A stretch of 50,584 nucleotides of DNA from IMG/VR virus record IMGVR_UViG_3300036859_000429, positions 1 through 50,584 of that record, one strand, 5' to 3'. The translations under genes and the position numbers were made by a program. A model generated the notes under the pieces. It had not been told where the DNA came from. It saw only the letters and a program-made list of their open reading frames with translations, and searched no databases. Shown here one piece after another: positions 3,509-13,667 of the stretch. Within the stretch, counting starts at the first letter, position 1. Every line of letters starts with the position of its first letter. This stretch comes from a virus.

Positions 3509-3765
3509 CGCTCTCCTTTGATCTCCCGGCTGAGAGTGCGGATGCGAACCAGGTGGTCGTCGAGAGCGACGACCTCGTTCACGATCGCATCCGCGAGCAG
3601 CCTGAGCGCCGCCCGTTCAGCTCGTACGTGGTCGGGAGGCGTCCCCTCGCTTTCGATCAGCTTCAGGATCTCGTCGCGTGTTACTGGGTCGAGCTGGAAT
3701 GTCTGGTCACGGTAGAGACGCTGGTGCGCGTAGAGCGCATCGAGCACATGATGGCGCAGTTTCAT
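3505..3765 (-). CDS. hypothetical protein (86 aa)
   Basis: Start at the internal ATG 3765 (MKLRHHVLDAL...), overlapping the stop of 3765..4193 by 1 nt (TGATG). Confidence 0.6.
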   Translation of the reverse strand: MKLRHHVLDALYAHQRLYRDQTFQLDPVTRDEILKLIESEGTPPDHVRAERAALRLLADAIVNEVVALDDHLVRIRTLSREIKGER

Positions 3766-4193
3766 CAGGCTGCCTGCCTTGCCCGCCAGGCGCGCTTCTC
3801 GATCGTGTTGCACGCCCGGCAGCGCGAATGCCGGAAACGGCGGTGCTCCTGCTTCTCAGAGCGATTGAACGGGAAGTCCTTGTCCGGCAGCCAGCGCTCA
3901 CAGCCGTTGCACCAAAGCGTCTTCTCGCGAACCGTGGTGATCCGTGTGCGTACGTGGCAGGCCCGGCAGTGCTTGCTGTACCTGACGATCCCCTGCTTCC
4001 CGCACGCGGCACAGTGTCCGCTCATCAACCAGCGGCGCGCATTAGCCTCCATGCGCTCGTAGCCTTGCCGGTTGCAAACCCGGTAGATGGCGGTCGACGA
4101 GACCCCGAACAGCTCCGCGATCTCGCGGTAGGTCCAGCCTCGTTTGCGCAGCTTTCTCGCCCGCTCGTAGCTGAACGTGCGCGGAGGGCTCAC
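3765..4193 (-). CDS. HTH DNA-binding protein with C-terminal multi-Cys zinc-finger region (142 aa)
   Basis: GTG start. N-terminus RKRGWTYREIAELFGVSSTAIYRV is a classic helix-turn-helix. The C-terminus has CAAC..C..C, CNGC and C..C pairs. Confidence 0.75.
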   Translation of the reverse strand: MSPPRTFSYERARKLRKRGWTYREIAELFGVSSTAIYRVCNRQGYERMEANARRWLMSGHCAACGKQGIVRYSKHCRACHVRTRITTVREKTLWCNGCERWLPDKDFPFNRSEKQEHRRFRHSRCRACNTIEKRAWRARQAA

Positions 4194-4351
4194 TCGCGAT
4201 CCTCGACCATCTGCGCGGCGAGCGCCGCCCCCAGCTGACGCTCAGCCTCACCGCCGTCATGGTCACCCTCGTGACCGGCGGGGAGCACGCAGAGCACGAC
4301 GCCCGTCCAATAGGACGCGCCCAGAGGCTCACCGCAGCGCTGGTCGCTCAC
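4190..4351 (-). CDS. small hypothetical protein (53 aa, not in ORF track)
   Basis: GTG at 4351 overlaps the stop of 4348..4599 (GTGA). Its TGA at 4192-4190 overlaps the GTG start of 3765..4193 (GTGA). Translation: VSDQRCGEPLGASYWTGVVLCVLPAGHEGDHDGGEAERQLGAALAAQMVEDRE. Confidence 0.4.
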   Translation of the reverse strand: MSDQRCGEPLGASYWTGVVLCVLPAGHEGDHDGGEAERQLGAALAAQMVEDRE

Positions 4352-4599
4352 GAGGCTCCGAAAACGAAGTCGGGGTCGATCCTGACCGTCAGCCGGTGCT
4401 CTCCGGCGCGGGTGAGAAGCGCGAACTCGCCGTCCAGCGGCACCATGATCTGGCCGGAATCAACCACCTCCAAGTCGAGCGCCGTGTAAGCGTCCACAAA
4501 GTCGACTCCCGCCGCCGACTCGGCCTGGACGTGCACGACACCCAAGCCGCGATCACGCTGAAGGGTCAAATCAAGGGACGACACACCTCCAGTGTACAT
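4348..4599 (-). CDS. hypothetical protein (83 aa; possibly leaderless from GTG 4584)
   Basis: ORF track. No SD before ATG 4599. The promoter-like TTGCAT-17-TACACT places a start site about at the in-frame GTG 4584. Confidence 0.6.
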   Translation of the reverse strand: MYTGGVSSLDLTLQRDRGLGVVHVQAESAAGVDFVDAYTALDLEVVDSGQIMVPLDGEFALLTRAGEHRLTVRIDPDFVFGAS

Positions 4600-4619
4600 A
4601 CAACGTCATGACAATGCAA
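4591..4619 (-). promoter_or_regulatory. putative sigma70/SigA-type promoter TTGCAT-17nt-TACACT
   Basis: The minus strand reads TTGCAT (4619-4614), a 17-nt spacer, then TACACT (4596-4591). GTG 4584 lies 6 nt downstream. Confidence 0.35.
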
Positions 4620-4693
4620 GGGCAGGAGGACGCCGCCGTGGAAGAGCGCCATGGAGAGCGGGACTGGGCCTCCCCACCGTGGGACCCAACAGT

Positions 4694-4711
4694 CCCCCGG
4701 CCTTTCGGGGG
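4694..4711 (-). terminator. GC hairpin after the TerS-like gene (weak terminator candidate)
   Basis: cccccgg/cctt/tcggggg stem-loop just downstream of stop codon 4719-4721. There is no strong U tract. Confidence 0.3.
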
Positions 4712-4718
4712 GGTACCC

Positions 4719-5543
4719 CTAGCCCGACTCGGCGTTGCCAGGCTCGACAACGGCCTCTAGCGGGCTCGACTCGGCATCAGCCTCCACGAGCCGCAAGCGC
4801 CTAGCCCTACCCTCAGCCACCAAGCGCTCCAAGGACGCAGTGTCCATCTGCTCCAAGTCCATGAGCGTCGAGGGTGCGCGCACCTCCACTCGCTCAGTCG
4901 GCTTGCCCAACGCCTGATCGAGCCACGGGATCAGAGCTTGCGCTGAGCGAACGTCTCCGGACGCGGCAGAACGGGCCAATACGCCTATCGCAGCGTCGAT
5001 TTCGACGGCGTGTTTGACTAGGGCTTCTGCGACGAGTTGCCTGGTGCCTAGCCGTCTGAGCGCTGCTACCTGGTCGATTCCTTCTCGTTTCGCTCTCTTA
5101 CTGGCGTGACTTGCCCTGGCTGCGAGTAGCGGGTCGGCGCGGCCGTCGTGGAAGGGGCAGAGCAGTCCGTCTGTGAGCGCTCGGCCGTTGCAGCGATGGC
5201 CGTCCCTGCGTGCCGCTATGCACCGTCGCTCGTCCCCGTTGAAGCCCTGAAAGCCGTCTTGTTGGGCTGGGTCTGGTGCTCCCAAGTCGACGTCCGGGTG
5301 GACCGTGGTGCTCTCGGGGATCAGGGGCCAGCGTGGAGCGCTGAGAGCGTCCAGCTCGTCGTCTGTCGGGCCCGCGGCTTCCTCCTCGGCCTCTGAGACA
5401 TCCGGGTACAGGTCCGGTTGCTGGGACGTCTCAGGGCTCCCACGGGGCGGCGAGGAGCGCCAGGCCCGCAGCCACGAGTGCGAGGCCGTCCACGAGCTGT
5501 ACAGCCTCCACGAAGAGGAGCACGGCGGCGACCGCGAAGGCAA
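4719..5543 (-). CDS. Zn-finger protein resembling actinophage small terminase subunits; start unresolved
   Basis: CIAARRDGHRCNGRALTDGLLCPFH motif followed by a helical region ending ...ALIPWLDQALGKPTERVE, as recalled for TerS-type proteins. The first ~40 codons look non-coding and overlap the 5431..5565 ORF. The first canonical in-frame start after that overlap is TTG 5285. Confidence 0.55.
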   Translation of the reverse strand: MPSRSPPCSSSWRLYSSWTASHSWLRAWRSSPPRGSPETSQQPDLYPDVSEAEEEAAGPTDDELDALSAPRWPLIPESTTVHPDVDLGAPDPAQQDGFQGFNGDERRCIAARRDGHRCNGRALTDGLLCPFHDGRADPLLAARASHASKRAKREGIDQVAALRRLGTRQLVAEALVKHAVEIDAAIGVLARSAASGDVRSAQALIPWLDQALGKPTERVEVRAPSTLMDLEQMDTASLERLVAEGRARRLRLVEADAESSPLEAVVEPGNAESG

Positions 5544-5565
5544 TCGAGGCGAGCCACCGCAGCAT
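5431..5565 (-). CDS. small membrane protein (44 aa, two hydrophobic helices)
   Basis: ATG 5565 with RBS GAGGGGG 5 nt upstream. MLRWLASIAFAVAAVLLFVEAVQLVDGLALVAAGLALLAAPWEP. GC3 counted by hand is ~89 percent. Confidence 0.55.
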   Translation of the reverse strand: MLRWLASIAFAVAAVLLFVEAVQLVDGLALVAAGLALLAAPWEP

Positions 5566-5656
5566 CAGAGCCCCCTCAGCCTGCGGTGGTCGGCGTACCA
5601 GACGCGCCACGGCTTCAACGAAGGGTCGCGACGCAACCAAGCGAGCAGCCAACGGA

Positions 5657-6073
5657 TCATTCGGCCCCCCAGAGCTGAGCGCCGACCGAGTAGGTGATCG
5701 AGTCAGCATCCCCGTGCACGGGTCGAACCCGCCAGCGCCTCGGCAGAACCGCGTTCGCTCCCACGTTCACGGTGACTGGCATCCCGGGACCGATCGTCAG
5801 CACCGTAGTCCCCACAGCCGTGATCGCCGCTGACGCAAGTAACAAATACCACTTGCCCGACAGATCATCGAAACCCTCGACGTTGAACACGACCGAAGGC
5901 GTGAGCGTGATTGCCGTCACATCAATGATCAGACGCACCCCGTCGAAACTGTCGTCAGCGAGTGGCTGGACAGTCGCGAGCGTCTCCGCGCGCCAGAATT
6001 CCTGAACCTCTACGGGCGTCGGCGAAGCCGTCCTAGCCAACGAGGCGTAAATCGTGCGCAGGGCCTTGAGCAC
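5657..6073 (-). CDS. hypothetical beta-rich protein (138 aa), first gene of leftward arm
   Basis: The C-terminal 138 codons of ORF 5657..6256 look coding. GTG 6073 sits 7 nt downstream of a TAGAAT -10 box, giving a leaderless configuration. Confidence 0.6.
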   Translation of the reverse strand: MLKALRTIYASLARTASPTPVEVQEFWRAETLATVQPLADDSFDGVRLIIDVTAITLTPSVVFNVEGFDDLSGKWYLLLASAAITAVGTTVLTIGPGMPVTVNVGANAVLPRRWRVRPVHGDADSITYSVGAQLWGAE

Positions 6074-6080
6074 GAGCCCA

Positions 6081-6086
6081 ATTCTA
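6081..6086 (-). promoter_or_regulatory. putative leftward -10 box TAGAAT (leaderless transcript starting at GTG 6073)
   Basis: The minus strand reads CACGTAGAATTGGGCTCGTG. The -10-like hexamer is 7 nt before the start codon. No good -35. Confidence 0.4.
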
Positions 6087-6196
6087 CGTGGTTCGGCGGA
6101 CGGCGGATGGTGACCCGGAACCCGCTTCCCCAGCCAACGTTTTCCAGAAAATTCGCAATTTGCGGGAAATACCTCAATACGAGCACCTGCGCACTC

Positions 6197-6225
6197 TTGC
6201 GAACAGACGCAACTAGGCGTACATT
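6197..6225 (+). promoter_or_regulatory. putative rightward early promoter TTGCGA-17nt-TACATT
   Basis: ttgcga 6197-6202, 17-nt spacer, tacatt 6220-6225. It would give a ~440-nt structured leader before the first gene (6673). Confidence 0.45.
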
Positions 6226-6615
6226 GTGTTCTCGCCCGCCGACTACCACCGCTCAACGTGGAGAGCGCAATGGGAAGGAACGGCGCTAGTACGCGGAGTC
6301 AGGTTCTGCGCGGAACGCACTAAGAGGCAGCCAGCCCCAGGGGCGAGCGACCGCGAATCCGAAATTCGTCGACACTCCGGGGGAGAGCCAATCGGACCGC
6401 AAAGCGTCCGAGGAGAAGGAATTTCCTGCAAGGCTGTGCCTGACTCTGACGACCACGACAGTGGGACCGCTTCGCGCGGTCGCTTCCGCCAGCTGAGCAT
6501 TTGCAGGAGGGGATAAGAGAAGCGAAACGACGGGACAATGCGTGCCCGGCACCAAAGCTCGTGCGGGATGCTGCACGAGCAACGCGCACCACCGCCATGG
6601 TCTGACTAGCCATGG

Positions 6616-6629
6616 CGTCAGTCCCCTCG
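6616..6629 (+). repeat. early-array box copy 1 (degenerate, orphan)
   Basis: cgtcagtcccctcg, preceded by hairpin gccatgg/ccatggc (6594-6616). No SD or gene follows. Confidence 0.7.
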
Positions 6630-6647
6630 CCCGGATTAGGCGGGGGG

Positions 6648-6661
6648 CGTCAGTCAACCCC
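6648..6661 (+). repeat. early-array box copy 2
   Basis: cgtcagtcaacccc, preceded by a 9-bp hairpin (6623-6647) and followed by gaaggag and ATG 6673. Confidence 0.9.
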
Positions 6662-6672
6662 GAAGGAGCATC

Positions 6673-7083
6673 ATGACCGATGCACAGACAGTCTCGCAGT
6701 ACCTGAACGGCCTCCCGCGCACGACTGCCGCTCCGGTGCTCGTCAAGATCGGCCGCACAGAGTACGTCGGCGCGATCTACTCGCAGGAGCGCGACACTCT
6801 CGAAGGTTCGCGCGCGTTCGAGGCAGGGGAGCGCACCTACGTACAACACGGCATCTACCTGTTGGGCGACCTGCCAGCGTCCTACCGGCGCTCGACTCGC
6901 ACAGCCTACGACCTTGACGGCAACCGCTACTACGTCGCAGGATACTTCCCGCAGGACGAGCCAAACGATTTTCATCCGTTCGGCCGCATGTTCCAGCTCT
7001 TTCCGGACGAGCATGGCGTGACGACTAACCCAGAGACGGACGAGCCCTATCCGGCAGTGCCCGCGAACATCGTCCACTGGTAG
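6673..7083 (+). CDS. hypothetical early protein (136 aa)
   Basis: ORF track. Box + GAAGGAG lie 4 nt upstream of the ATG. Confidence 0.8.
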   Translation: MTDAQTVSQYLNGLPRTTAAPVLVKIGRTEYVGAIYSQERDTLEGSRAFEAGERTYVQHGIYLLGDLPASYRRSTRTAYDLDGNRYYVAGYFPQDEPNDFHPFGRMFQLFPDEHGVTTNPETDEPYPAVPANIVHW

Positions 7084-7106
7084 CAAGTAACGACCGCGTG
7101 AGCGGT

Positions 7107-7120
7107 CGTCAGTCGAGCCC
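7107..7120 (+). repeat. early-array box copy 3 (variant, orphan)
   Basis: cgtcagtcgagccc, preceded by hairpin cgaccgc-gtga-gcggtcg (7091-7108). No SD or credible gene before 7258. Confidence 0.75.
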
Positions 7121-7231
7121 CAGCACCGTACCGATGCTCGTCGGTCCAGCGAAAAGTCCTCGCGTTCACTCCGGGGCGACTCATCAGCGCAGCACGGAAG
7201 GCGAGAGACGGAGAACCGTGCGCGGGCTCGA

Positions 7232-7245
7232 CGTCAGTCAACTCC
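7232..7245 (+). repeat. early-array box copy 4
   Basis: cgtcagtcaactcc followed by gaaggag and GTG 7258. Confidence 0.85.
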
Positions 7246-7257
7246 GAAGGAGAAACC

Positions 7258-7383
7258 GTGAAATGCCCTAACTGCAAAACCAAAATGACACCACGCCTTT
7301 CGCCTCGCGGCTGGCGCTCGAACGAATGCGCGCCTTGCAACATCGTTTACATCTGCTCACGCAAACAGAAGCGCGCCGCGTGA
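7258..7383 (+). CDS. small zinc-ribbon protein (41 aa, not in ORF track)
   Basis: GTG 7258 follows box + GAAGGAG. VKCPNCKTKMTPRLSPRGWRSNECAPCNIVYICSRKQKRAA has two CxxC pairs. Confidence 0.5.
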   Translation: MKCPNCKTKMTPRLSPRGWRSNECAPCNIVYICSRKQKRAA

Positions 7384-7389
7384 AAGCGG

Positions 7390-7403
7390 CGTCAGTCAAC
7401 CCC
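7390..7403 (+). repeat. early-array box copy 5
   Basis: cgtcagtcaacccc. The hairpin cgccgc-gtgaaa-gcggcg (7374-7391) has the upstream stop codon in its loop. Followed by gaaggag and ATG 7415. Confidence 0.9.
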
Positions 7404-7414
7404 GAAGGAGAACC

Positions 7415-7771
7415 ATGTACATCCGCTCCAACATCCTGACCACGCAGAACATCCTCGATTCGCTACAGCACGCTCGCAGCGAAGGCTTCGACATCTACCT
7501 CGACGTCGACGCCGGGATCCGCGAGTTCAGCCCGCGCAGGTTCGAGCGCGGATTCAAGCTGTACTGCGAATCCCTGAACGGCAAGCGTGCGCGCAACGGT
7601 CGCGTGGGCATGGCCGCGTCGTGGGACGCGTACGGCGTCGCAATGGCGTACCTGTACGCGCTCGATCCTGACGCCGAGATCGCGTGGTACAAAAACCGCG
7701 ACGACTTCTACGAAAAGACGAGCCTCTATGCCCATCGCATGGGCGAAGCGCCGTGGCTCACCATCGCCTAG
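7415..7771 (+). CDS. hypothetical early protein (118 aa)
   Basis: ORF track. Box + SD upstream. Confidence 0.8.
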   Translation: MYIRSNILTTQNILDSLQHARSEGFDIYLDVDAGIREFSPRRFERGFKLYCESLNGKRARNGRVGMAASWDAYGVAMAYLYALDPDAEIAWYKNRDDFYEKTSLYAHRMGEAPWLTIA

Positions 7772-7793
7772 CAACATCGCCCGCTCGTGCGGG

Positions 7794-7807
7794 CGTCAGT
7801 CAACCCC
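7794..7807 (+). repeat. early-array box copy 6
   Basis: cgtcagtcaacccc. Hairpin cgcccgc-tcgt-gcgggcg (7778-7795). Followed by gaaggag and ATG 7822. Confidence 0.9.
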
Positions 7808-7821
7808 GAAGGAGAAACATC

Positions 7822-7974
7822 ATGCACGAGGAATCTTGGCAGGTCTCTTGCGACGACTGCGGGGCGATCTTCACTGAGATTTACCCCGATGGTCTAGACG
7901 GCGACGAGTCCTACTCGGACCCGAACGACCCCAAACCCTGCGACTGCGATTCTCAATACACGCTGCTCGTCTAG
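7822..7974 (+). CDS. small acidic Cys-containing protein (50 aa)
   Basis: Internal ATG of ORF 7684..7974, placed after box + SD. MHEESWQVSCDDCGAIFTEIYPDG...PCDCDSQYTLLV. Confidence 0.65.
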   Translation: MHEESWQVSCDDCGAIFTEIYPDGLDGDESYSDPNDPKPCDCDSQYTLLV

Positions 7975-7998
7975 CTAGCACCGCCCGCAACTCGCGGG

Positions 7999-8012
7999 CG
8001 TCAGTCAACCCC
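7999..8012 (+). repeat. early-array box copy 7
   Basis: cgtcagtcaacccc. Hairpin cgcccgc-aactc-gcgggcg (7982-8000). Followed by aaggagg and ATG 8025. Confidence 0.9.
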
Positions 8013-8024
8013 CAAGGAGGAACC

Positions 8025-8291
8025 ATGTTTATCCGCTACGCAATCGTCCGCAACGCACGCTCACGCCGTGAGGCCGAGGCATACTTGCCTGACAACTACC
8101 GCGTGATCTACTCGCACATCGATCCCGACAAGCGCCGCACCATCCGCGAAGAATTCGTGATCGAGGGCAAGGACGTCGCAGGTTGGACACTCGACGGCTA
8201 CGTGATCCCGCGCTACGCGTCCGGTCTGATCCAGTGCGAGGAGATTGATCTCTCGCACCCGATCATGAAAAAGGTGCCCCTCAACGCTTGA
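8025..8291 (+). CDS. hypothetical early protein (88 aa)
   Basis: ORF track. Box + SD upstream. Confidence 0.8.
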   Translation: MFIRYAIVRNARSRREAEAYLPDNYRVIYSHIDPDKRRTIREEFVIEGKDVAGWTLDGYVIPRYASGLIQCEEIDLSHPIMKKVPLNA

Positions 8292-8297
8292 GGGGCA

Positions 8298-8310
8298 CGT
8301 CAGCCACCCC
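8298..8310 (+). repeat. early-array box copy 8 (degenerate, orphan)
   Basis: cgtcagccacccc, preceded by hairpin cccctcaa-cgc-ttgagggg spanning the 8291 stop. No gene follows. Confidence 0.55.
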
Positions 8311-8335
8311 CGCCCGTTCCCGCAGGCCGGGGTGG

Positions 8336-8347
8336 CGTTAGTCCCCC
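8336..8347 (+). repeat. early-array box copy 9 (degenerate, orphan)
   Basis: cgttagtccccc, preceded by the 8-bp hairpin ccaccccg...cggggtgg. No gene follows. Confidence 0.5.
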
Positions 8348-8426
8348 GAGTCGTTCACGAATATCGGCATGGCACCTGACGCCTAGTTGCCCTGTGCCGA
8401 GGCACGAGAACGGTCAGGCCGGGGGA

Positions 8427-8440
8427 CGTCAGTCACCCCC
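8427..8440 (+). repeat. early-array box copy 10
   Basis: cgtcagtcaccccc followed by atggagg (SD) and ATG 8462. Confidence 0.8.
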
Positions 8441-8461
8441 TGCACAATGGAGGCATCCCCA

Positions 8462-8683
8462 ATGACCGCTACGACCACACTCCTAGAGCGCAACACCGCA
8501 GGCTTCGAGGTCCAGGTCACATACCTGCCAATCACCGAAACACTCGTGCTGCACGCGCGATGCAACGGCGAAGAGGCCGCAGTCACGATCGATCCCGAGC
8601 GCGTGCTCGACGCGTTCGAGCATCCGACCATGTACCTGAACGCTGCTCAAGTCGAGCAGTTGTTCGCGCGCGCCGCCGAGTAG
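8462..8683 (+). CDS. hypothetical early protein (73 aa)
   Basis: ATG 8462 lies 7 nt after GGAGG, in frame within ORF 8387..8683. Confidence 0.7.
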   Translation: MTATTTLLERNTAGFEVQVTYLPITETLVLHARCNGEEAAVTIDPERVLDAFEHPTMYLNAAQVEQLFARAAE

Positions 8684-8688
8684 GCGCG

Positions 8689-8702
8689 CGTCAGTCAACC
8701 CC
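8689..8702 (+). repeat. early-array box copy 11
   Basis: cgtcagtcaacccc. The hairpin cgcgcgcc...ggcgcgcg (8667-8690) has stop codon 8681-8683 in its loop. Followed by gggagg. Confidence 0.9.
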
Positions 8703-8716
8703 GAATGGGAGGAATC

Positions 8717-8896
8717 TTGAACGACCTAGCACACCCATATCCGCCCGGCACCCGCTTCGAGCAGGCTTGGCCCGAAGGTACGAAGCTCTGCCCTCAGTGT
8801 GAACAACCCGACAACTGCGGCGACTGCGATCACAATCCGCTCACGGCGGAACAGGTCGAGACTCTCGGCGGATGGTTCGTACCCATCAACACGTAG
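8717..8896 (+). CDS. small Cys-rich protein (59 aa; alternative ATG 8705)
   Basis: TTG 8717 lies 4 nt after GGGAGGA. An ATG at 8705 is in frame but sits inside the SD. CPQCEQPDNCGDCDH motif. Confidence 0.65.
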   Translation: MNDLAHPYPPGTRFEQAWPEGTKLCPQCEQPDNCGDCDHNPLTAEQVETLGGWFVPINT

Positions 8897-8918
8897 CTCC
8901 CCAACGCGGCTTAGGCCG

Positions 8919-8932
8919 CGTCAGTCAACCCC
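8919..8932 (+). repeat. early-array box copy 12
   Basis: cgtcagtcaacccc. Hairpin cgcggc-ttag-gccgcg (8905-8920). Followed by aaggagag and ATG 8944. Confidence 0.9.
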
Positions 8933-8943
8933 AAGGAGAGATC

Positions 8944-9195
8944 ATGCAGGGCTACAAGTACCCCGTCGAAGTCGAAGGCAACTACACGCCTGAGCCGAAC
9001 GATGAGCAGTGCCGGACGTTGCTTCGCGCGCTCTGGCATTACGCCTCAGCGTACGCCGATCACGAGCCGAATGGCATTCGTGAGATGACGATCAATGACC
9101 TGATGTGTGACCTGATCGACTCCCAGTCCAACGGCTACGGCATGACCCGCGATGAGTGGGTCGAGATCGGTCGCGCGACCGGCATCCCGGTCTGA
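8944..9195 (+). CDS. hypothetical acidic early protein (83 aa)
   Basis: Internal ATG (M25) of ORF 8872..9195, after box + SD. Confidence 0.75.
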   Translation: MQGYKYPVEVEGNYTPEPNDEQCRTLLRALWHYASAYADHEPNGIREMTINDLMCDLIDSQSNGYGMTRDEWVEIGRATGIPV

Positions 9196-9214
9196 ACCAC
9201 CGCCCCGTAAGGGG

Positions 9215-9228
9215 CGTCAGTCAACCCC
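9215..9228 (+). repeat. early-array box copy 13 (orphan)
   Basis: cgtcagtcaacccc. Hairpin cgcccc-gtaa-ggggcg (9201-9216). No SD follows, and the next box is 60 nt downstream. Confidence 0.85.
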
Positions 9229-9287
9229 GCGGGAAGTACGGTCATATTCGAGCCGTCCGGGAGCGTGCGAGGCCGCTTCCCTTCCCG

Positions 9288-9301
9288 CGTCAGTCAACCC
9301 C
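9288..9301 (+). repeat. early-array box copy 14
   Basis: cgtcagtcaacccc followed by gaaggagg and ATG 9315. Confidence 0.9.
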
Positions 9302-9314
9302 GAAGGAGGAAGCA

Positions 9315-9470
9315 ATGGAGGACGAACAGACATACGAAATCGTGCGCTTTCGCTTCAAGGAGGAAAACGAAGTGCTCGCGACCGGCGTGACACTCGAAGA
9401 GGCGCAAGAACACTGCGAGCGCGAGGACACTCACGGCGACGGGTGGTTCGACGGATACCGGGCCGAGTAA
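9315..9470 (+). CDS. small highly acidic protein (51 aa)
   Basis: Internal ATG (M54) of ORF 9156..9470, after box + SD. MEDEQTYEIVRFRFKEENEVLATGVTLEEAQEHCEREDTHGDGWFDGYRAE. Confidence 0.65.
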   Translation: MEDEQTYEIVRFRFKEENEVLATGVTLEEAQEHCEREDTHGDGWFDGYRAE

Positions 9471-9488
9471 CAAACGCCGCGTAAGCGG

Positions 9489-9503
9489 CGTCAGTCATAC
9501 CCC
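9489..9503 (+). repeat. early-array box copy 15 (variant)
   Basis: cgtcagtcatacccc. Hairpin cgccgc-gtaa-gcggcg (9475-9490). Followed by aaaggagg and GTG 9526. Confidence 0.85.
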
Positions 9504-9525
9504 AAACCGAAAGGAGGCACCCAAA

Positions 9526-10500
9526 GTGCCTGCACTATTCGAAACCGGTTTCTTCGTTCGGGAACCCGCCTGGCACGGAGAAGGGCTCGTGCTGGCCGAG
9601 TACCCCGGCCGCGAAGAGGCAATGCGGTTCGCCGGTCACGACTTCGAAGTGATCAAGCGACCGATCCAGGTTGTCGGCAACCATACCGCGCTCGACGCCG
9701 AGGACTGGAAGGCGCTCGTTAAAAGCGGCTCGACAACGATCCTGAACATCGTCCGCAACTCATACGAGGTGATCCAGAATTCGGTCGCCTACGACATCGC
9801 TGAGATGCTTTTCAGCGAAGGCTTCGAGTATGAGACGGGCATCACGCTCGACGAAGGCCGCATCTGCGCGCTGACGTTGAAGTTGGACGAGCCGATCGTG
9901 CTTCCCGGCGACGACTCGCCCGTCCTGCCGTTCGGGTGCCTGTCATGGGCGCACGACGGGTCCGGGGCGCTCCGTGTTCGCAGCGGGGCGATCCGGCAAA
10001 TGTGCGCGAACACGGTGACCGCGTCGGAAGCCGAGGGCAGACGCCTCGGGACCGACTTCACCTTCCGCCACACGAAGAACGTGCACGAGCGGATCGCCGA
10101 CGCCAAAAAGGCAGTCAGCGGTACGCGCGAGCAGTTCGACATCTACCGCAAGGTGATGGAGGAGCTTGGCCGGATCACGGTCACGCCCCATCAGCGCGAC
10201 ATGTTCGTGTCCACGATCATCGGTGACCGTGGTGGCGTGCTCAGCAGGTCGGCGAGCACGAGCGAGCGCGTCAAGAACAACCTGGAAGCGGAGCGCGCGA
10301 AGATCAACGCTCTGTTCTTCGGACCGACGATCCCCGAGGATCACACGTTGACCGGCTACGGTCTGCATCTGGCCGGGGTTGAGTACTTCGACCACCTGCG
10401 GGCGTTCCGGTCGCGGGACTCGTACGTGAAGCGCACGTTGCTGGCCGAGAACCCGGCTAAGGCGTCGCTGACACGGACGATTCGTGACCTAGTCGCCTAG
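9526..10500 (+). CDS. DUF932-like phage/plasmid protein (324 aa)
   Basis: ORF track, GTG start. N-terminus FVREPAWHGEGLVL...EEAMRFAGHDFEVIKRPIQV matches my recollection of the DUF932 / TIGR03299 family signature. Confidence 0.8.
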   Translation: MPALFETGFFVREPAWHGEGLVLAEYPGREEAMRFAGHDFEVIKRPIQVVGNHTALDAEDWKALVKSGSTTILNIVRNSYEVIQNSVAYDIAEMLFSEGFEYETGITLDEGRICALTLKLDEPIVLPGDDSPVLPFGCLSWAHDGSGALRVRSGAIRQMCANTVTASEAEGRRLGTDFTFRHTKNVHERIADAKKAVSGTREQFDIYRKVMEELGRITVTPHQRDMFVSTIIGDRGGVLSRSASTSERVKNNLEAERAKINALFFGPTIPEDHTLTGYGLHLAGVEYFDHLRAFRSRDSYVKRTLLAENPAKASLTRTIRDLVA

Positions 10501-10509
10501 GCATGAAAC

Positions 10510-10539
10510 GAGGGGATCCCATTGCGGCGGGATCCCCTC
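10510..10539 (+). terminator. 11-bp perfect GC hairpin after DUF932 gene (terminator-like, no U tract)
   Basis: gaggggatccc-attgcggc-gggatcccctc, 10 nt after the stop at 10500. Confidence 0.4.
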
Positions 10540-10559
10540 TCCACCCCGAGCCGGTAAAG

Positions 10560-10572
10560 CGTCAGTCAACCC
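10560..10572 (+). repeat. early-array box copy 16
   Basis: cgtcagtcaaccc followed by tagaaggagg and ATG 10588. Confidence 0.85.
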
Positions 10573-10587
10573 TAGAAGGAGGACGAC

Positions 10588-10857
10588 ATGGCTAACTGGA
10601 GCAACCACGAATGGGCCTTCAGGAACGACCCCCAGGAACAAGCAAAGTTCTACGACCGCGTGCAAGACAAACTCGTAGACGACGAGGGACAGATCGCAGA
10701 CGACCCGCATCCCGGCGACATGTGGCTGATCGGGCGCAAAGACATAAGCGACCGCGAATTTCTCGCACCATTGCTCGACAACGAGCCAGCGTGCGGAATT
10801 TGCGGGTGCGAGCCGAACGAGCACGCCTATTCGTGTGACGCGCGGGGCGAGGAGTGA
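10588..10857 (+). CDS. hypothetical acidic protein with C-terminal Cys cluster (89 aa)
   Basis: ORF track. Box + SD upstream. CGICGC...C motif. Confidence 0.75.
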   Translation: MANWSNHEWAFRNDPQEQAKFYDRVQDKLVDDEGQIADDPHPGDMWLIGRKDISDREFLAPLLDNEPACGICGCEPNEHAYSCDARGEE

Positions 10858-10865
10858 TCCTCGTC

Positions 10866-10877
10866 CGTCAGTCCCCC
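10866..10877 (+). repeat. early-array box copy 17 (degenerate, orphan)
   Basis: cgtcagtccccc, 9 nt after the stop at 10857. No SD or gene follows. Confidence 0.55.
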
Positions 10878-10938
10878 GAAGAACAGCACGGACGACCGCC
10901 GGTCGCACCCGGTCGCGTCGTGCGAATCGTTCGGGGGG

Positions 10939-10950
10939 CGTCAGTCAACA
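10939..10950 (+). repeat. early-array box copy 18 (variant)
   Basis: cgtcagtcaaca followed by aacccaacagaaggagag and ATG 10973. Confidence 0.8.
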
Positions 10951-10972
10951 AACCCAACAGAAGGAGAGCACC

Positions 10973-11371
10973 ATGAAACACTTTGTAGCGCTGCTTGTCC
11001 TAGCAGCCTTTCTCGCCCCGGCCGCGAACGCGGTCTCGCAGGCTCGCGATCCGCGCGTGCCGACACTCCAGCGACGCGTCGCGAACGTCGAGCGTCACGT
11101 CTCGACTATCGAGCGTCACTCCACGGACGTGGACCTGCAGATCGGTGCAATGAGCCGGGATCTCGACACCGTTCGCGAGCAGGTCACATCACTCCAGACC
11201 GCAGCCGAGCAACTGCGAACCGGGATCAACTACGTGAACGACAAAGACACCTGCTCTACAGCGCTCACGTTCGACGTCTTTCGAGTACTGATCATGGGAC
11301 TCGGCGGCGGGGACATCGGCCGTCTCGACGACAAGGGCGCATGCTCGCGAGTGAGCGTCACGCGACCGTAA
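10973..11371 (+). CDS. secreted coiled-coil protein (132 aa)
   Basis: Internal ATG of ORF 10835..11371, after box + SD. Signal-peptide-like MKHFVALLVLAAFLAPAANA followed by heptad-like repeats. Confidence 0.75.
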   Translation: MKHFVALLVLAAFLAPAANAVSQARDPRVPTLQRRVANVERHVSTIERHSTDVDLQIGAMSRDLDTVREQVTSLQTAAEQLRTGINYVNDKDTCSTALTFDVFRVLIMGLGGGDIGRLDDKGACSRVSVTRP

Positions 11372-11393
11372 AAAGCGGCGGGCCTCGGCCCGT

Positions 11394-11407
11394 CGTCAGT
11401 CAACCCC
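11394..11407 (+). repeat. early-array box copy 19
   Basis: cgtcagtcaacccc, preceded by the cgggcc/ggcccg hairpin and followed by gaaggagg and ATG 11421. Confidence 0.9.
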
Positions 11408-11420
11408 GAAGGAGGAACAC

Positions 11421-11693
11421 ATGTACGCCAACATCACGCACATCATCAGCATCACGGACTGGAGCGAAAGGGTCGAGGTCGACCACGACGACTTAGGCCG
11501 TATTCATCTGCATCTACCCGAGGTCTACCTCTCATTCCAGCCGGACGAATGGGACGCGCTCGTGATCGAAGTCGCGCGCCTACGTGGCCTCACTAGCGAA
11601 CACCCGTTCACGGGCGATACACTCGTCTCGATCCCTGGTGACCCGCTCACCGGCCCCAACTACGGCGGGCAACAGCCCGAGGAGGCAACATGA
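11421..11693 (+). CDS. hypothetical acidic protein (90 aa)
   Basis: ORF track. Box + SD upstream. Stop overlaps the next start (ATGA). Confidence 0.75.
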   Translation: MYANITHIISITDWSERVEVDHDDLGRIHLHLPEVYLSFQPDEWDALVIEVARLRGLTSEHPFTGDTLVSIPGDPLTGPNYGGQQPEEAT

Positions 11694-11965
11694 CAAAGGC
11701 GCTCGTCGGCGCAGCCGAGATCGAAGAGAAATTCGGCCTCAACCGAATGCAGGTCTACCGCCTGCTCCGCGCAGGCGACTTCCCACAACCCACCGCCGAG
11801 CTAGCGCACGGGCGCGTGTGGGATGCAGACAAGGTCGCTCTGCGAGTGCAACTGCTGCGCGAAGTCGGCCGGATCAACGCAAGCAACATCGTGGTTCCGT
11901 GGCGCTTCCTCGACGGCGGGAACTACGCACAACGACGACGACTGAAGAAGAAAACGAGCGCCTAA
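11690..11965 (+). CDS. excisionase/AlpA-like (MerR-type) HTH DNA-binding protein (91 aa)
   Basis: ORF track. AEIEEKFGLNRMQVYRLLRAGDFPQP...GRVWDADKV matches the excisionase-family HTH pattern. This is the only gene of the array without its own box. Confidence 0.75.
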   Translation: MTKALVGAAEIEEKFGLNRMQVYRLLRAGDFPQPTAELAHGRVWDADKVALRVQLLREVGRINASNIVVPWRFLDGGNYAQRRRLKKKTSA

Positions 11966-11971
11966 CGCGCT

Positions 11972-11985
11972 CGTCAGTCAACCCC
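11972..11985 (+). repeat. early-array box copy 20
   Basis: cgtcagtcaacccc. The hairpin acgagcgc-ctaac-gcgctcgt (11954-11974) has stop codon 11963-11965 in its loop. Followed by aaggagg and ATG 12002. Confidence 0.9.
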
Positions 11986-12001
11986 AACAAGGAGGCACAA
12001 C

Positions 12002-12235
12002 ATGGAAATCACATCACCGCGATACGACGTCGAGGTCGAATTGATCGGCCGGGACGGCAACGCGATGGTCTTGCTCGGCGCAGTGACGCGCGAGTTGAAG
12101 CGCCACCTGCGCAACGACTTGGGCAAGAACCCGGAAGAGACAAGCACCATCGTCGGCGAGTTCATGGCAGAAGCCACGTCCGGCGACTACGACCACCTTC
12201 TCTTGACCTGCACGAGGTGGGTCAACGTCACGTAG
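12002..12235 (+). CDS. hypothetical protein (77 aa)
   Basis: ORF track. Box + SD upstream. The ...GNAMVLLGAV...EFMAEATSGDYDHLLLTC... motif recalls a small protein family common in phages (unverified). Confidence 0.75.
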   Translation: MEITSPRYDVEVELIGRDGNAMVLLGAVTRELKRHLRNDLGKNPEETSTIVGEFMAEATSGDYDHLLLTCTRWVNVT

Positions 12236-12243
12236 AAAGACGA

Positions 12244-12263
12244 GGGGGGCCTCACGGCCCCCC
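12244..12263 (+). terminator. 8-bp GC hairpin closing the early array (terminator-like)
   Basis: ggggggcc-tcac-ggcccccc, 9 nt after the stop at 12235. Confidence 0.4.
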
Positions 12264-12264
12264 A

Positions 12265-12276
12265 AGTCAGTCACCC
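12265..12276 (+). repeat. early-array box copy 21 (degenerate, orphan)
   Basis: agtcagtcaccc directly after hairpin 12244-12263. It overlaps the stop of the minus-strand HNH gene. Confidence 0.5.
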
Positions 12277-12582
12277 GTGATGTTCCAGCGCGTGGCAGTT
12301 CGCGCAAAGCACGTCGCACTTCGCGATCTCCGCGAGTAAACGAGGATTATCGGGTGAACCTGTCCACCGCGACACATTGAAGGCCTTTGTGCTCGGATCG
12401 CGGTGATGCCAGTGCAACTGCTGTGGCGTGACAGCCTCAAAGCCACACTGCATGCAGACGCGTCCTTTCAATTCTTGAATGCGTCCTCGGAGCGAGCGAT
12501 CCATCCTCGATCGCTTCGCTCGATTCTGCTCGTTCCAACGACGCCACTGCTCCCGGCGAGCAGCCGAATCGAGGTACGGCAT
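12271..12582 (-). CDS. HNH endonuclease (103 aa)
   Basis: ORF track. CMQCG...HWHHRD...N...CANCH is the HNH/zinc-finger signature. Strong RBS GGAGGAG lies 6 nt upstream of ATG 12582. Confidence 0.85.
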   Translation of the reverse strand: MPYLDSAARREQWRRWNEQNRAKRSRMDRSLRGRIQELKGRVCMQCGFEAVTPQQLHWHHRDPSTKAFNVSRWTGSPDNPRLLAEIAKCDVLCANCHALEHHG

Positions 12583-12632
12583 CGGTTTTCTCCTCCGGGG
12601 ATGACGTCGGTTGAACTAAACGTCAGCCGGAG

Positions 12633-12638
12633 ATTCTA
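12633..12638 (-). promoter_or_regulatory. putative -10 box TAGAAT for the HNH gene
   Basis: The minus strand reads GGGCGCTAGAATCTCC, ~50 nt upstream of ATG 12582. No clear -35. Confidence 0.3.
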
Positions 12639-12653
12639 GCGCCCGAGAAAGAC

Positions 12654-12685
12654 GGAGGGGAGAAGCCGAAGCCCCTCCCCTTTTC
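12654..12685. terminator. bidirectional terminator-like hairpin
   Basis: ggagggg-agaagccgaagc-cccctcc, followed by ccttttc on + and by gtctttctc on -. It lies between the two minus-strand genes. Confidence 0.45.
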
Positions 12686-12688
12686 AAC

Positions 12689-12702
12689 CGTCAGTCATCC
12701 CC
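12689..12702 (+). repeat. early-array box copy 22 (variant, orphan)
   Basis: cgtcagtcatcccc directly after hairpin 12654-12678. No plus-strand gene follows. Confidence 0.7.
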
Positions 12703-12726
12703 TACACGAGAGTCTAGCGTAGAGCG

Positions 12727-13170
12727 TCAGCTGACGCGAGCCGCGTAGGCTTTCGCGTCCGCCTCCTTCTCCTCCTCGGTCATCTCCGTGAGGTTCGGAT
12801 TTGACCAATGCCCCTTGCCCGTGTTCGCGGGATGGGTGGCCTGCTGCGAGGCCGTCACCTGCGAGAGCCGAGCCGCGTCGTCCGGCCGGACGCGCGTGCT
12901 GACTTCGTTACCGTCCGAATCGGTCACCGTGACCGACACGTCGGGCGGTCCCGCGATCTCGGTCGTCGAGTCCTCGATCTGAGCCGCTGTCGGCATCTCG
13001 GGACGCGCTTTGACGATCCGAGACTCGCCTGTCGCCGTCTGCGGCAAGCGCAGTTCGAGGTCGGCCGGGGACTGGCCCGCCTTCGCCAGTGCCTCGGTAT
13101 CAGCGGGAGAGATGCGCTCGGCCGCAACGGACGGCGTCGAGCCAGGCGTCTCTTTCTTCTTGTCTGCCAC
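12727..13170 (-). CDS. hypothetical low-complexity protein (147 aa)
   Basis: ORF track. GTG start with strong RBS AAGGAGG 7 nt upstream. T/S/A/E-rich sequence. Confidence 0.65.
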   Translation of the reverse strand: MADKKKETPGSTPSVAAERISPADTEALAKAGQSPADLELRLPQTATGESRIVKARPEMPTAAQIEDSTTEIAGPPDVSVTVTDSDGNEVSTRVRPDDAARLSQVTASQQATHPANTGKGHWSNPNLTEMTEEEKEADAKAYAARVS

Positions 13171-13301
13171 TGTGGCCCTCCTTCAATTCAAGAGAGGTCG
13201 GGTACCCGCAACGGAGGATACGCGATCCAACGGACGAGACGCGAAGGGCGCCGGGTGCCCCGACGCCCCTCAAACGCCTCTCGCCAGAGGCCGCTCTGGC
13301 C

Positions 13302-13330
13302 TTGCGGCGTCGAGCGATCAGGCGTAGAGT
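13302..13330 (+). promoter_or_regulatory. putative promoter TTGCGG-17nt-TAGAGT for the replication block
   Basis: ttgcgg 13302-13307, 17-nt spacer, tagagt 13325-13330. GTG 13344 lies 13 nt downstream. Confidence 0.45.
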
Positions 13331-13343
13331 TCCGTTCTCTCTC

Positions 13344-13667
13344 GTGAACGGTGAACCGGACACTACCCGTCACTCCCCGCCAGATCAACTTCGCGAGCAC
13401 ATATCGCGGGTGATCGGCATGGACATCGACGAGTACCTCGCGCTCGACGCCGAAGCGCACCGCCCGCCACCCCTGGACCACGAGGCAAACCGCGGCTGGA
13501 AAGCAGTGATGCTCGCGCCGACGATCGAGCTTTGCCAGGCGCTCCTGCGCGACGAGCGCGTCCCGTGGCGAGTGCTACGCCCCGACCAAGCCGAGCGCTT
13601 TGGACTCAGACGGCGTACAGCCGATGATCGTTACTCGCTCGACGACTTTAACGACGTTCGCAAGTGA
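13344..13667 (+). CDS. hypothetical protein (107 aa; alternative ATG 13419)
   Basis: The C-terminal part of ORF 13089..13667 looks coding. GTG 13344 follows the promoter-like element. Stop overlaps the next start (GTGA). Confidence 0.5.
   Translation: MNGEPDTTRHSPPDQLREHISRVIGMDIDEYLALDAEAHRPPPLDHEANRGWKAVMLAPTIELCQALLRDERVPWRVLRPDQAERFGLRRRTADDRYSLDDFNDVRK

Follow-up and report, generated by a model that had tools for sequence, protein, structure and literature searches.

The window, a 50,584-nt stretch of DNA from an uncultivated soil phage (positions 1 to 50,584 of the IMG/VR virus record IMGVR_UViG_3300036859_000429), carries on its + strand an array of 15 small genes separated by a repeated module of a hairpin, a conserved box, and usually a Shine-Dalgarno (SD) sequence. 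The features of the array are as follows.

6197..6225, + strand: candidate sigma-70-type promoter of the array, read from the sequence (TTGCGA, 17-nt spacer, TACATT)
6454..6601, + strand: conserved structured core of the 5' leader between promoter and first module, alignable in 8 phages
6593..6629, + strand: first module, made up of hairpin 6593-6617 (loop CTGACT) and degenerate box CGTCAGTCCCCTCG
6621..6672, + strand: second hairpin 6621-6648, box 6648-6661, SD GAAGGAG, ATG at 6673
7091..7120, + strand: 7 nt past the stop at 7083, hairpin 7091-7108 (loop GUGA) with degenerate box CGTCAGTCGAGCCC
7112..7257, + strand: closed domain 7112-7232 (z = -3.0), box 7232-7245, SD, GTG at 7258
7374..7414, + strand: hairpin 7374-7391 (TGA stop in loop), box 7390-7403, SD, ATG at 7415
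7778..7821, + strand: hairpin 7778-7795, box 7794-7807, SD, ATG at 7822
7982..8024, + strand: hairpin 7982-8000, box 7999-8012, SD, ATG at 8025
8274..8311, + strand: hairpin 8274-8298 (TGA stop in loop) and degenerate box CGTCAGCCACCCCC
8303..8461, + strand: hairpin 8303-8336, degenerate box 8337-8350, closed domain 8341-8426 (z = -3.4), box 8427-8440, SD, ATG at 8462
8667..8716, + strand: hairpin 8667-8690 (TAG stop in loop), box 8689-8702, SD GGGAGG, TTG at 8717
8905..8943, + strand: hairpin 8905-8920, box 8919-8932, SD, ATG at 8944; best covariance-model match (47.9 bits)
9201..9228, + strand: hairpin 9201-9216 (GUAA loop) and full box 9215-9228, without SD
9228..9314, + strand: closed domain 9228-9289 (z = -3.0), box 9288-9301, SD, ATG at 9315
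9475..9525, + strand: hairpin 9475-9490 (GUAA loop), box variant 9489-9502, A/C-rich spacer, SD, GTG at 9526 (DUF932 gene)
10510..10587, + strand: hairpin 10510-10539, 20-nt spacer, box 10560-10573, SD, ATG at 10588
10845..10879, + strand: hairpin 10845-10866 (TGA stop inside) and degenerate box CGTCAGTCCCCCGA
10871..10972, + strand: closed domain 10871-10939 (z = -5.4), box variant 10939-10952, A/C-rich spacer, SD, ATG at 10973
11376..11420, + strand: hairpin 11376-11395, box 11394-11407, SD, ATG at 11421
11955..12001, + strand: hairpin 11955-11973 (TAA stop in loop), box 11972-11985, SD, ATG at 12002
12244..12278, + strand: hairpin 12244-12263 and box-like AGTCAGTCACCCGT past the last array gene, without SD or following gene (z = -4.0)
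12271..12582, - strand: HNH-endonuclease-like gene between two box copies, called from the motif CxxC...HWHH...CANCH in its translation because no Pfam match was found for the product
12656..12702, + strand: hairpin 12656-12681 and a trailing TTTT, terminator-like in form; the last box, 12689-12702, comes next, with no + strand gene beyond it

The box is 13-14 bases long with a C/A-rich 3' half. Searching for CGTCAGTCAACCCC at up to 2 mismatches returned 18 matches, 17 of them on the + strand between 6648 and 12702, and the 18th, a 2-mismatch copy at 43215, lies outside the array. Together with the degenerate copies at 6616, 8298, 8337, 10866, 10939, and 12265, this reproduces the count of about 22 given in the initial annotation, with every array copy on the + strand within 6616-12702. 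The excess is real, as 0.54 matches are expected from shuffles against the 17 found and none of 100 shuffles reached 18. The core GTCAGTC likewise has 20 + strand copies within 6617-12696 and only 2 elsewhere. The box precedes 14 of the 15 array genes, as had been claimed, ending 11-23 nt before the start codon; the exception (11690) overlaps its neighbour by ATGA, and no box was found before any non-array gene. The hairpin and box also occur where no gene follows (9201-9228, 12244-12278, and 12689-12702). Across four phages, 51 of 56 array genes have a box within 50 nt upstream of the start, mostly ending 11-16 nt from a start codon that is ATG in 50 of the 56. The box is conserved among these phages, with 1.2-2.0 bits at positions 2-13 and nearly 2 bits at positions 2-8 (51 sites, four divergent phages).

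Analysis of the hairpins revealed perfect stems of 6-9 bp, each ending on the box G, at 6593-6617, 7091-7108, 7374-7391, 7778-7795, 7982-8000, 8667-8690, 8905-8920, 9201-9216, 9475-9490, 11376-11395, and 11955-11973. The hairpins listed in the initial annotation are thus real, and the hairpin lies directly against the box in only about two thirds of the copies. At junctions with two boxes (6616/6648, 7107/7232, 8298/8427, 9215/9288, and 10866/10939), the stretch between the copies is predicted to form a closed stem-loop domain extending up to the second box, which itself stays unpaired. Other relatives with this box likewise have a TGACT-bearing hairpin at their first module. In a covariance-model alignment of 58 copies, 99.6% of positions were paired, versus 76% after shuffling, with 48 double-change cells versus 13 (0 of 500 shuffles). 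Complementarity is kept although 65 hairpins have 55 distinct arms, and in an independent test stems of at least 7 bp ended at the box in 34% of 99 copies versus 1.4-2% at control positions. These values bear out the earlier argument that the compensatory changes reflect selection on structure. G:U outnumbers A:C (40 versus 9), and GNRA or UNCG loops make up 25 of 36 tetraloops, which assigns the structure to the + strand RNA; the hairpins are selected as + strand RNA. The variable stems are bounded by conserved closing pairs, CG...CG here and GGAGG...CCUCC in two more distant relatives (L089 and L091).

The hairpin is positioned at the stop codon of the upstream gene. The stop lies within the hairpin at 11 of 41 junctions and 0-10 nt before it at 26, giving 37 of 41, and the stops noted previously in the loops at 7381-7383, 8681-8683, and 11963-11965 can be read directly in the sequence. 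The absence of a U tract after the array hairpins was also borne out, so the hairpin is probably not a transcription terminator, and no + strand terminator-like site was found inside the array.

An equivalent gene array with the same module is present in at least nine related soil-metagenome phages (L087, L088, L090, L097, L098, L105, L112, L119, and L120), whose protein identity is only 34-64%. In L089 and L091 the architecture is retained with another box and two hairpins, in the order hairpin 1, CTCCAGGCCC, covarying hairpin 2, CACCCACGAAGGAGG. The arrays are mosaic, and a DUF932 gene, whose function is unassigned, is the sole gene common to all six arrays. Comparison of L097 and L087 (93.5% identical) revealed 97% identity as far as the end of one box, a drop to 26% beyond it, and a return of homology from the start of the next box. 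The joint is clean in this one close pair and is backed by patches in another, and cassette boundaries coincide with boxes. A recombination joint, one of four roles proposed initially, is therefore directly supported. All genes are separated by the same 13-22 bases, which would make the box the site where related phages recombine; counting against a box-mediated joint, 14 bp is short for homologous recombination. With hairpin, box, and ribosome-binding site (RBS) repeated between small early genes and genes swapped exactly at the box, the box has the look of a standard connector for plugging in new genes.

Upstream of the array, the promoter-like site at 6197-6225 has 8 of 12 matches and lies under the threshold of the detection tool, so it stays a candidate. 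A comparable hexamer pair precedes the leader in L087 (TTGCAA, 17 nt, TACAAC), and a less clean one in L090. The leader is about 440 nt long and structured; in its core, 11 of 25 predicted pairs have changed on both sides (matched by 0 of 500 shuffles), and no Rfam match was found for it. The promoter-like site, the structured leader, and the second box variant of the relatives are absent from the initial annotation.

We consider it about an even chance (roughly 0.5) that the module is an intercistronic RNA junction, comprising an insulating or stabilising hairpin, an open leader, and a strong RBS, which also provides the crossover point for cassette exchange. The array would be one operon, probably transcribed early, read from the sigma-70-like promoter near 6197-6225 through the leader and on through the hairpins, and the module would act in this + strand transcript. 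A very stable GC hairpin, starting at or just after the stop codon, would close each cistron and lock up its 3' end, perhaps shielding it from 3' exonucleases. The box and then a strong SD, usually followed by ATG, would give each small gene a standard open initiation region independent of its neighbours. The exchanged cassette would comprise SD, ORF, and hairpin, with the box as linker. A role in translation and mRNA stability fits the geometry and the predicted accessibility, which from -26 to +3 is 0.54 for array genes versus 0.41 for other genes (p = 5e-5). The accessibility of the array genes is only moderately higher.

A low-structure leader needs no near-invariant GTCAGTC, so its conservation and the discrete box switch in L089 and L091 point to sequence-specific recognition beyond the junction model; the strict conservation of this core suggests a sequence-specific reader. 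The box could be an address label for a trans-acting factor (an endoribonuclease, or an RNA-binding protein of the phage or the host) that recognises the foot of the hairpin and single-stranded GUCAGUC. Such a factor would cleave the polycistronic early transcript into units capped by hairpins, or shut off early translation at a later stage of infection, for which T4 RegA and RegB are analogues. This proposal, which we hold as tentative and less probable than the junction itself, is compatible with the junction explanation and would add to it. Consistent with a reader are the conserved closing pairs around variable stems, the copies of hairpin and box with no downstream gene, and the lack of a box at all other genes. 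GTCAGTC is also somewhat depleted outside the arrays (6 observed versus 11-20 expected), but this is not robust to model order (p 0.0002 to 0.075). No candidate factor was found, Pfam and PHROGs being empty for most proteins, and the only gene shared by all arrays is that for the DUF932 protein.

Terminator-promoter cassettes similar to T4 PeSLs (promoter-early stem-loops), in which the hairpin ends the upstream gene's transcript and a modified or other RNA polymerase uses the box as its promoter, would give one transcription unit per gene. The layout of stem-loop, conserved sequence, and small ORF with recombination at the conserved part recalls PeSLs (PMC4122927), and the hairpin and box stand at the 3' ends of genes. 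However, the box lacks -10 and -35 hexamers, no sigma-70-like site was found in it or elsewhere inside the array, and the adjoining stem leaves no conserved upstream promoter element. No U tract follows the hairpins, no RNA polymerase or sigma factor was detected, and a promoter-like site and long conserved leader precede the whole array, in relatives too. Moreover, a box-started transcript would have a leader of only ~11-16 nt, and gene 11690 has an ATGA overlap in place of a box, making this explanation improbable. The stop positions at 37 of 41 junctions and the short, regular stop-to-start spacing would also suit a termination-reinitiation tether, in which a ribosome melting the stop-codon hairpin is held by pairing of the box with 16S rRNA and reinitiates at the next SD, as in calicivirus TURBS. 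CGUCAGUC is complementary to positions 748-755 of the E. coli 16S rRNA, a reference that may differ from that of the host, and we take this stretch to be base-paired in helix 22. The full box pairs with E. coli 16S rRNA no better than shuffled boxes (z = +1.4), the L089 and L091 boxes show no 16S pairing, and the first gene of each array has a box with no upstream ORF. Since only two 16S bases lie 3' of the anti-SD, the box is unable to extend SD pairing, and we regard reinitiation as very unlikely. Least probable of all is a DNA-level operator array of the Cluster A stoperator kind, in which a phage repressor on the double-stranded box would block elongation: the sites are asymmetric, 13-14 bp, intergenic, and all oriented with transcription, but no repressor or integrase was detected in the window, a single scan of 185,579 species genomes, looking for the box together with an SD-like run of purines, yielded no prophage copy, the sites are limited to one operon, and their tight link to an RNA-type hairpin and SD would be unexpected.

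Among known systems, T7 RNase III sites, C(UUCG)G hairpins in T4 intercistronic regions, and REP/BIME elements are intercistronic stabilising or processing hairpins. Like the hairpins here, they are stable, lie between cistrons of polycistronic mRNA, shape segmental stability and expression, and commonly have UUCG or GNRA loops; none of them, however, has an invariant single-stranded box running straight into the SD of the following gene, as here. In addition, RNase III sites require a longer duplex, and REPs are conserved in sequence. Integron cassettes with attC are likewise small promoterless ORFs in one orientation, each followed by a hairpin element, with exchange at a short conserved site. 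By contrast, no integrase was found here, attC core sites are absent, and the hairpins have RNA signatures; exchange at the boxes looks like short-homology recombination and not site-specific recombination. Stoperators, which occur across both genome arms of temperate phages, are DNA sites bound by a repressor. Those of Cluster A mycobacteriophages (mentioned in PMC3203893) resemble the box in their many asymmetric 13-14 bp copies in short intergenic gaps along transcription, whereas the sites here lie in one operon, are tied to RNA hairpins and SD, and have no repressor found for them. T4-type PeSLs (PMC2839356, PMC4122927) share a short stem-loop and conserved-sequence motif flanking small variable early ORFs in plastic regions, with indel and cassette-swap boundaries between close relatives falling in the motif. 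In a PeSL, the conserved part is an early sigma-70 promoter and the stem-loop a terminator (PMC2839356, PMC4122927), whereas here the box without promoter hexamers lies directly against the SD, the stem has no U-tract, and the array as a whole appears to be served by one promoter-like site upstream of it. The start-associated sequences (SAS) and extended SAS (ESAS) of Cluster K mycobacteriophages (PMC3203893) are similarly asymmetric repeats of ~13 bases in one orientation at non-structural genes only, just upstream of starts with ATG favoured, conserved before unrelated genes and often with an upstream inverted repeat. The SAS GGGATAGGAGCCC contains the SD, 3-7 bp from the start codon, and the arms of the ESAS are 17 bp long and conserved in sequence, with deviations that lend no support to RNA pairing (PMC3203893); here, the box is 5' of a separate SD, ending 11-16 nt from the start codon, and the hairpin arms are unconserved and covarying. 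As the initial annotation rightly held, the module matches neither system; its nearest counterparts are T4 PeSLs and Cluster K SAS, and it belongs to neither.

The window is a tailed-phage genome with 63% GC, which encodes a portal, a terminase, a primase/helicase-like gene and an exonuclease. A tRNA-like element with a 4-base anticodon, called by ARAGORN at 47589-47682 on the - strand, lies inside the CHAP/PG-binding endolysin gene and is almost certainly spurious.

41728-43650, portal
44347-46068, terminase

Small + strand genes of unknown function make up the box array, a block that lies between - strand blocks as judged by GC3. Analysis of the window indicated that the 14-mer form of the box, CGTCAGTCAACCCC, has 18 matches with at most 2 mismatches, of which 17 are on the + strand at 6648-12702; dinucleotide shuffles, the control proposed in the initial annotation, lead to an expectation of 0.54. 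The core GTCAGTC is present in 20 + strand copies at 6617-12696 and in 2 copies elsewhere in the window, and the 22 boxes counted previously are recovered once the degenerate copies at 6616, 8298, 8337, 10866, 10939 and 12265 are added. All box copies fall within 6.1 kb of the 50.6-kb window, and none is found among the replication genes on the + strand at 13-22 kb. Outside 6590-12710, the core was observed 2 times on both strands of the window versus approximately 6-10 expected, and outside the arrays of four phages it was observed 6 times in sum versus 11-20 expected, depending on the Markov order; it is possibly avoided outside arrays, a depletion that is not robust. A box followed by an AGGAG-type Shine-Dalgarno (SD) sequence was confirmed before 14 of the 15 genes at 6673-12235, and gene 11690, the sole box-less array gene, overlaps its neighbour in ATGA. 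The spacers between box and SD are A-rich and T-poor. Across four phages, a box is found within 50 nt upstream of 51 of 56 array genes, usually ending 11-16 nt before the start codon, box positions 2-13 carry 1.2-2.0 bits, and ATG is the start codon of 50 of the 56 genes.

Megablast of the array against GenBank phages and tblastn searches for cultured relatives with the capsid and endolysin gave no match. The terminase is at most 30% identical to those of cultured phages, and a 33-nt query of box plus SD returned only single chance matches in Tsukamurella and Gordonia phages. These comparisons argue that close or even moderate relatives are absent among the cultured phages searched. An exact-match scan of IMG/VR identified three contigs with many box copies, the proteins of which are only 34-64% identical to those of the window, and further relatives were recovered from IMG/VR and soil metagenomes through a conserved gene beside the array.

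4719-5543, - strand, TerS-like 274-aa protein, divergent beside the array and conserved in all relatives

Copies of the GTCAGTC core in related phages with the hairpin-box-SD module on the array strand
L087, 13 copies
L088, 12 copies
L090, 18 copies
L097, 6 copies
L098, 2 copies
L105, 5 copies
L112, 9 copies
L119, 9 copies
L120, 5 copies

A scan for box plus SD, with one genome per species, gave one cellular match, at 3002-3022 of L086, a contig (JAXDHR010000064.1) of a Solirubrobacteraceae (actinobacterial) MAG with 74% GC. The exact box and SD, with TTGACT before them, lie upstream of a nitrilase-family gene; as a single copy, the match is probably due to chance and was rejected as a clue to the host or a prophage. 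In another related locus, L123, six small genes on the + strand (approximately 3.2-4.2 kb), the same strand as its TerS-like gene, begin with an identical 20 bases, ATGACAACGCACGCTAAGGC, which may represent a different kind of repeated gene-start cassette.

All hairpins listed in the initial annotation, together with three stop codons placed in their loops, were found. Of 99 unique box copies, 54.5% have a perfect stem of 5 bp or more that terminates on the box G, compared with 7-10% at control positions, and 34% have one of 7 bp or more, compared with 1.4-2% at controls; the enrichment is gone 2-3 nt downstream. Searching with a covariance model made from 10 seeds recovered 58 copies, in the alignment of which 99.6% of cells are paired (76% when shuffled) and 48 cells carry double changes (13 when shuffled), bearing out the earlier inference that compensatory changes in the arms reflect a selected structure. 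None of 500 shuffles reached the observed covariation score, and slid controls collapsed. Since this alignment was fitted to the model's own structure, more weight is given to the independent test of stem position. The 65 hairpins contain 55 distinct 5' arms, G:U pairs exceed A:C pairs by 40 to 9, and among 36 tetraloops 14 are GNRA and 11 are UNCG, with approximately 5% expected by chance according to our estimate. The pairing and covariation, the G:U excess and the GNRA/UNCG loops argue for hairpins formed in + strand RNA, and against a DNA cruciform or an inverted repeat bound by a protein. Of 41 junctions, 11 have the upstream stop codon inside the hairpin and 26 have it 0-10 nt ahead of the hairpin. 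Rfam covariance models, run on the window and five related loci, gave nothing at the gathering score and only one weak chance match (E = 1.8).

Two transcriptional explanations of the module were considered. As intrinsic (rho-independent) terminators the junction hairpins would require a U-tract; in agreement with the earlier description, CGTCAGTC comes directly 3' instead, and this explanation was rejected. No terminator-like sites were found on the + strand within the array, and a hairpin followed by a U-tract occurs only at 12656-12685 (hairpin 12656-12681 plus TTTT), beyond the last array gene. The box was also rejected as a promoter, as it contains no TANNNT or TTGACA-like hexamers, a promoter scan of 5500-13500 found no sigma-70-like site, and the proteins scanned contain no RNA polymerase or sigma factor domains. 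The region upstream of the array holds the following features, of which the promoter-like site is a candidate below the threshold of the scan tool (8/12 matches).

6154-6168, + strand, motif CGCAATTTGCGGGAA, just 5' of the promoter-like site
6197-6225, + strand, promoter-like TTGCGA-17-TACATT, upstream of the array, with counterparts in relatives
6230-6672, + strand, leader of about 440 nt that separates the promoter-like site from the first array gene

L087 and L088 have motifs resembling (G)CAATTTGCGGGAA at the equivalent place, L089 has an altered version, and the CGCAATTTGCGGGAA motif may be an operator. The leader core (6454-6601) is alignable in 8 phages, with motifs including GGGGAUAAGAG, CGAAACGRCGGGA and CCCGUCACCAAG. 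Changes on both sides were observed in 11 of its 25 predicted pairs, a result equalled in 0 of 500 shuffles, and the core has no match in Rfam; it is apparently a structured RNA and could serve as a regulatory or antitermination leader. Because the promoter-like site and the conserved leader lie upstream and the array lacks internal terminator or promoter sites, we infer that the array is one operon and that the modules are elements within its RNA.

Strong mosaicism is seen in the arrays, where the majority of genes occur in a single phage and shared genes occupy differing ranks, even between phages with different box types. Comparison of L097 and L087 revealed 93.5% identity up to a box, with 97% over the 100 nt that lead to the end of that box and 26% beyond, and homology returns (97.9%) precisely where the next box begins. 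Between these boxes, two genes in L087 take the place of one in L097, and in this exchange the hairpin stays with the gene before it and the SD with the gene after it. The patches of homology shared by L119 and L088 likewise begin or end at boxes. The box-bounded replacement supports the recombination joint that had been listed as a candidate role, and sequence analysis thus backs both the RNA structure of the module and recombination at it. At the end of the array, an HNH-endonuclease-like gene (12271-12582, - strand; CxxC...HWHH...CANCH, no Pfam match) sits on the opposite strand between boxes 12265 and 12689, and looks as if a mobile endonuclease had been inserted at a junction.

Two more distant relatives, L089 and L091, have no CGTCAGTC and carry another repeated junction at the same place.

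about 1600-9460, - strand, second-type junctions of L089
about 4480-9110, - strand, second-type junctions of L091

The order in these junctions is stop codon, hairpin 1, CTCCAGGCCC, hairpin 2, (U)CACCCACGAAGGAGG, 5-7 nt and ATG. Hairpin 1 has a GGAGGG...CCCUCC foot and often a UUCG loop. Hairpin 2 forms with 5 bp or more in 19 of the 20 modules, and its arms come in 13 different sequences. RNAalifold predicted that the invariant CUCC of the first box pairs with the GGAG of the SD, a modelled pairing that could act as an SD-sequestering switch. The two-hairpin layout is also seen in CGTCAGTC-box phages, namely at some junctions of L119 and in the first modules of L087 and L088. In the two-box junctions of the window, the spacer folds into a closed domain ending at the second box (z -3.0 to -5.4), with the exception of the 32-nt junction 6616/6648 (z = -1.3), and the box is unpaired in the predicted folds. 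The second-type layout and these two-hairpin or two-box junctions of CGTCAGTC phages point to a general plan consisting of hairpin 1, box part A, an optional hairpin 2, a C/A-rich box part B, and the SD. In the first modules of the window (6593-6623) and of L087, L088, L090, L092, L105, L112, L119 and L120, the hairpin loop or 3' part contains (C)TGACT, the complement of AGTCA(G) in the adjacent box, and two mutually exclusive pairings are possible.

We infer that the module is an RNA-level junction with a role in expression. A stable hairpin would close each cistron, perhaps protecting it, the box and SD would provide a standard open translation-initiation region, and the shared box sequence would double as a crossover site for cassette exchange. 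Open initiation is suggested by the unpaired box, the A-rich and T-poor spacer, the ATGA overlap of the box-less gene 11690 with its neighbour, and the predicted accessibility at -26 to +3 (0.54 for array genes versus 0.41 for other genes, p = 5e-5). This RNA-junction mechanism leaves the near-invariant GUCAGUC and the discrete second box type unexplained, and these two features suggest a sequence-specific reader. A bolder reading, which we consider rather unlikely, is that a dedicated, co-evolving trans-acting partner reads the 13-nt box as an address label throughout the operon. This partner could be a phage protein or possibly even the structured, conserved leader RNA that heads the same operon. 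If this were true, the two box types, CGUCAGUC... in the window and CUCCAGGCCC + CACCCAC in L089 and L091, would represent alternative specificities of a single system that controls all early cistrons together, by processing, activation or shut-off, and newly captured cassettes would gain the label automatically.

No candidate reader of the box was found. Among the candidates set aside is a DUF932 gene, for which both a solved structure and a known function are absent.

9526-10500, + strand, DUF932 gene, the one gene shared by all six early arrays (window, L087-L091)

The leader RNA was rejected as an antisense guide for the box, with duplex energies no better than those of shuffles except in L088. 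An apparent co-variation of UGACU/AGUCA versus AGCCU/AGGCU across the two box types did not hold in L105, and no extended reverse-complement copy of the box was found in the window. The 274-aa protein (4719-5543) has an RRC...C...C.H Cys/His motif and no Pfam or PHROG match; this motif and its position point to a probable first late gene of small-terminase-like type, and it was rejected as the partner of the box. The complementarity of the box to 16S rRNA, a check suggested in the initial annotation, was not borne out with E. coli 16S as a proxy that may not represent the host's (full box z = +1.4; only a 7-8 nt match at positions 748-755), nor did the L089 and L091 boxes show significant pairing with this proxy.

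If the junction works as proposed, the lineage would have a natural standard connector for genes: a gene dropped between boxes would be given a strong, insulated start of translation and protection of its 3' end, with no promoter of its own. Such a connector would ease gene exchange between relatives, would account for the rapid turnover of orphan early-gene arrays, and would offer a compact, context-independent part for operon expression in GC-rich bacteria. The near-invariant GUCAGUC and the unclassified leader are leads to a possible new RNA-recognition or early-gene control system.

Comparison with published phage repeats upheld the earlier remark that the module matches neither the Cluster K start-associated sequences (SAS) nor the T4-type motif, as the defining features of both fail here. 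In T4-type PeSLs, the conserved segment is a sigma-70-type early promoter and the stem-loop is a terminator (PMC4122927). Unlike these, the box of the module contains no promoter and its hairpin has no U-tract, although both elements flank small variable ORFs and have the swap or indel boundaries between close relatives within the motif. The SAS is a 13-bp GGGATAGGAGCCC-type sequence that includes the SD and lies 3-7 bp before the start codon (PMC3203893), whereas the box differs in sequence, lies 5' of a separate SD and ends 11-16 nt before the start; both share a single orientation, a restriction to non-structural genes and an ATG bias. The ESAS has conserved 17-bp inverted repeats with departures that do not support RNA pairing (PMC3203893), whereas the arms of the module are unconserved and covarying (55 distinct in 65 hairpins). 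Cluster A stoperators are bound by the phage repressor and are spread across both genome arms, and the module is very probably not such an array, its copies being confined to 6.1 kb and no repressor or integrase domain being found in the proteins scanned. Integron attC sites go with a tyrosine-recombinase integrase and have the core sites GTTRRRY / RYYYAAC; these are unlike the box, the stems of the module are unconserved, the proteins scanned yielded no integrase domain, and this assignment was rejected. By analogy, the module would function most like T4-type PeSLs (PMC4122927) and is placed like Cluster K SAS/ESAS (PMC3203893), extending mobile regulatory cassettes from promoter-based T4-like motifs to a putative RNA-level motif in an unrelated uncultivated lineage. 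On this evidence, the module is real and conserved within a lineage of uncultivated soil phages, and belongs with mobile regulatory cassettes or start-associated repeats.
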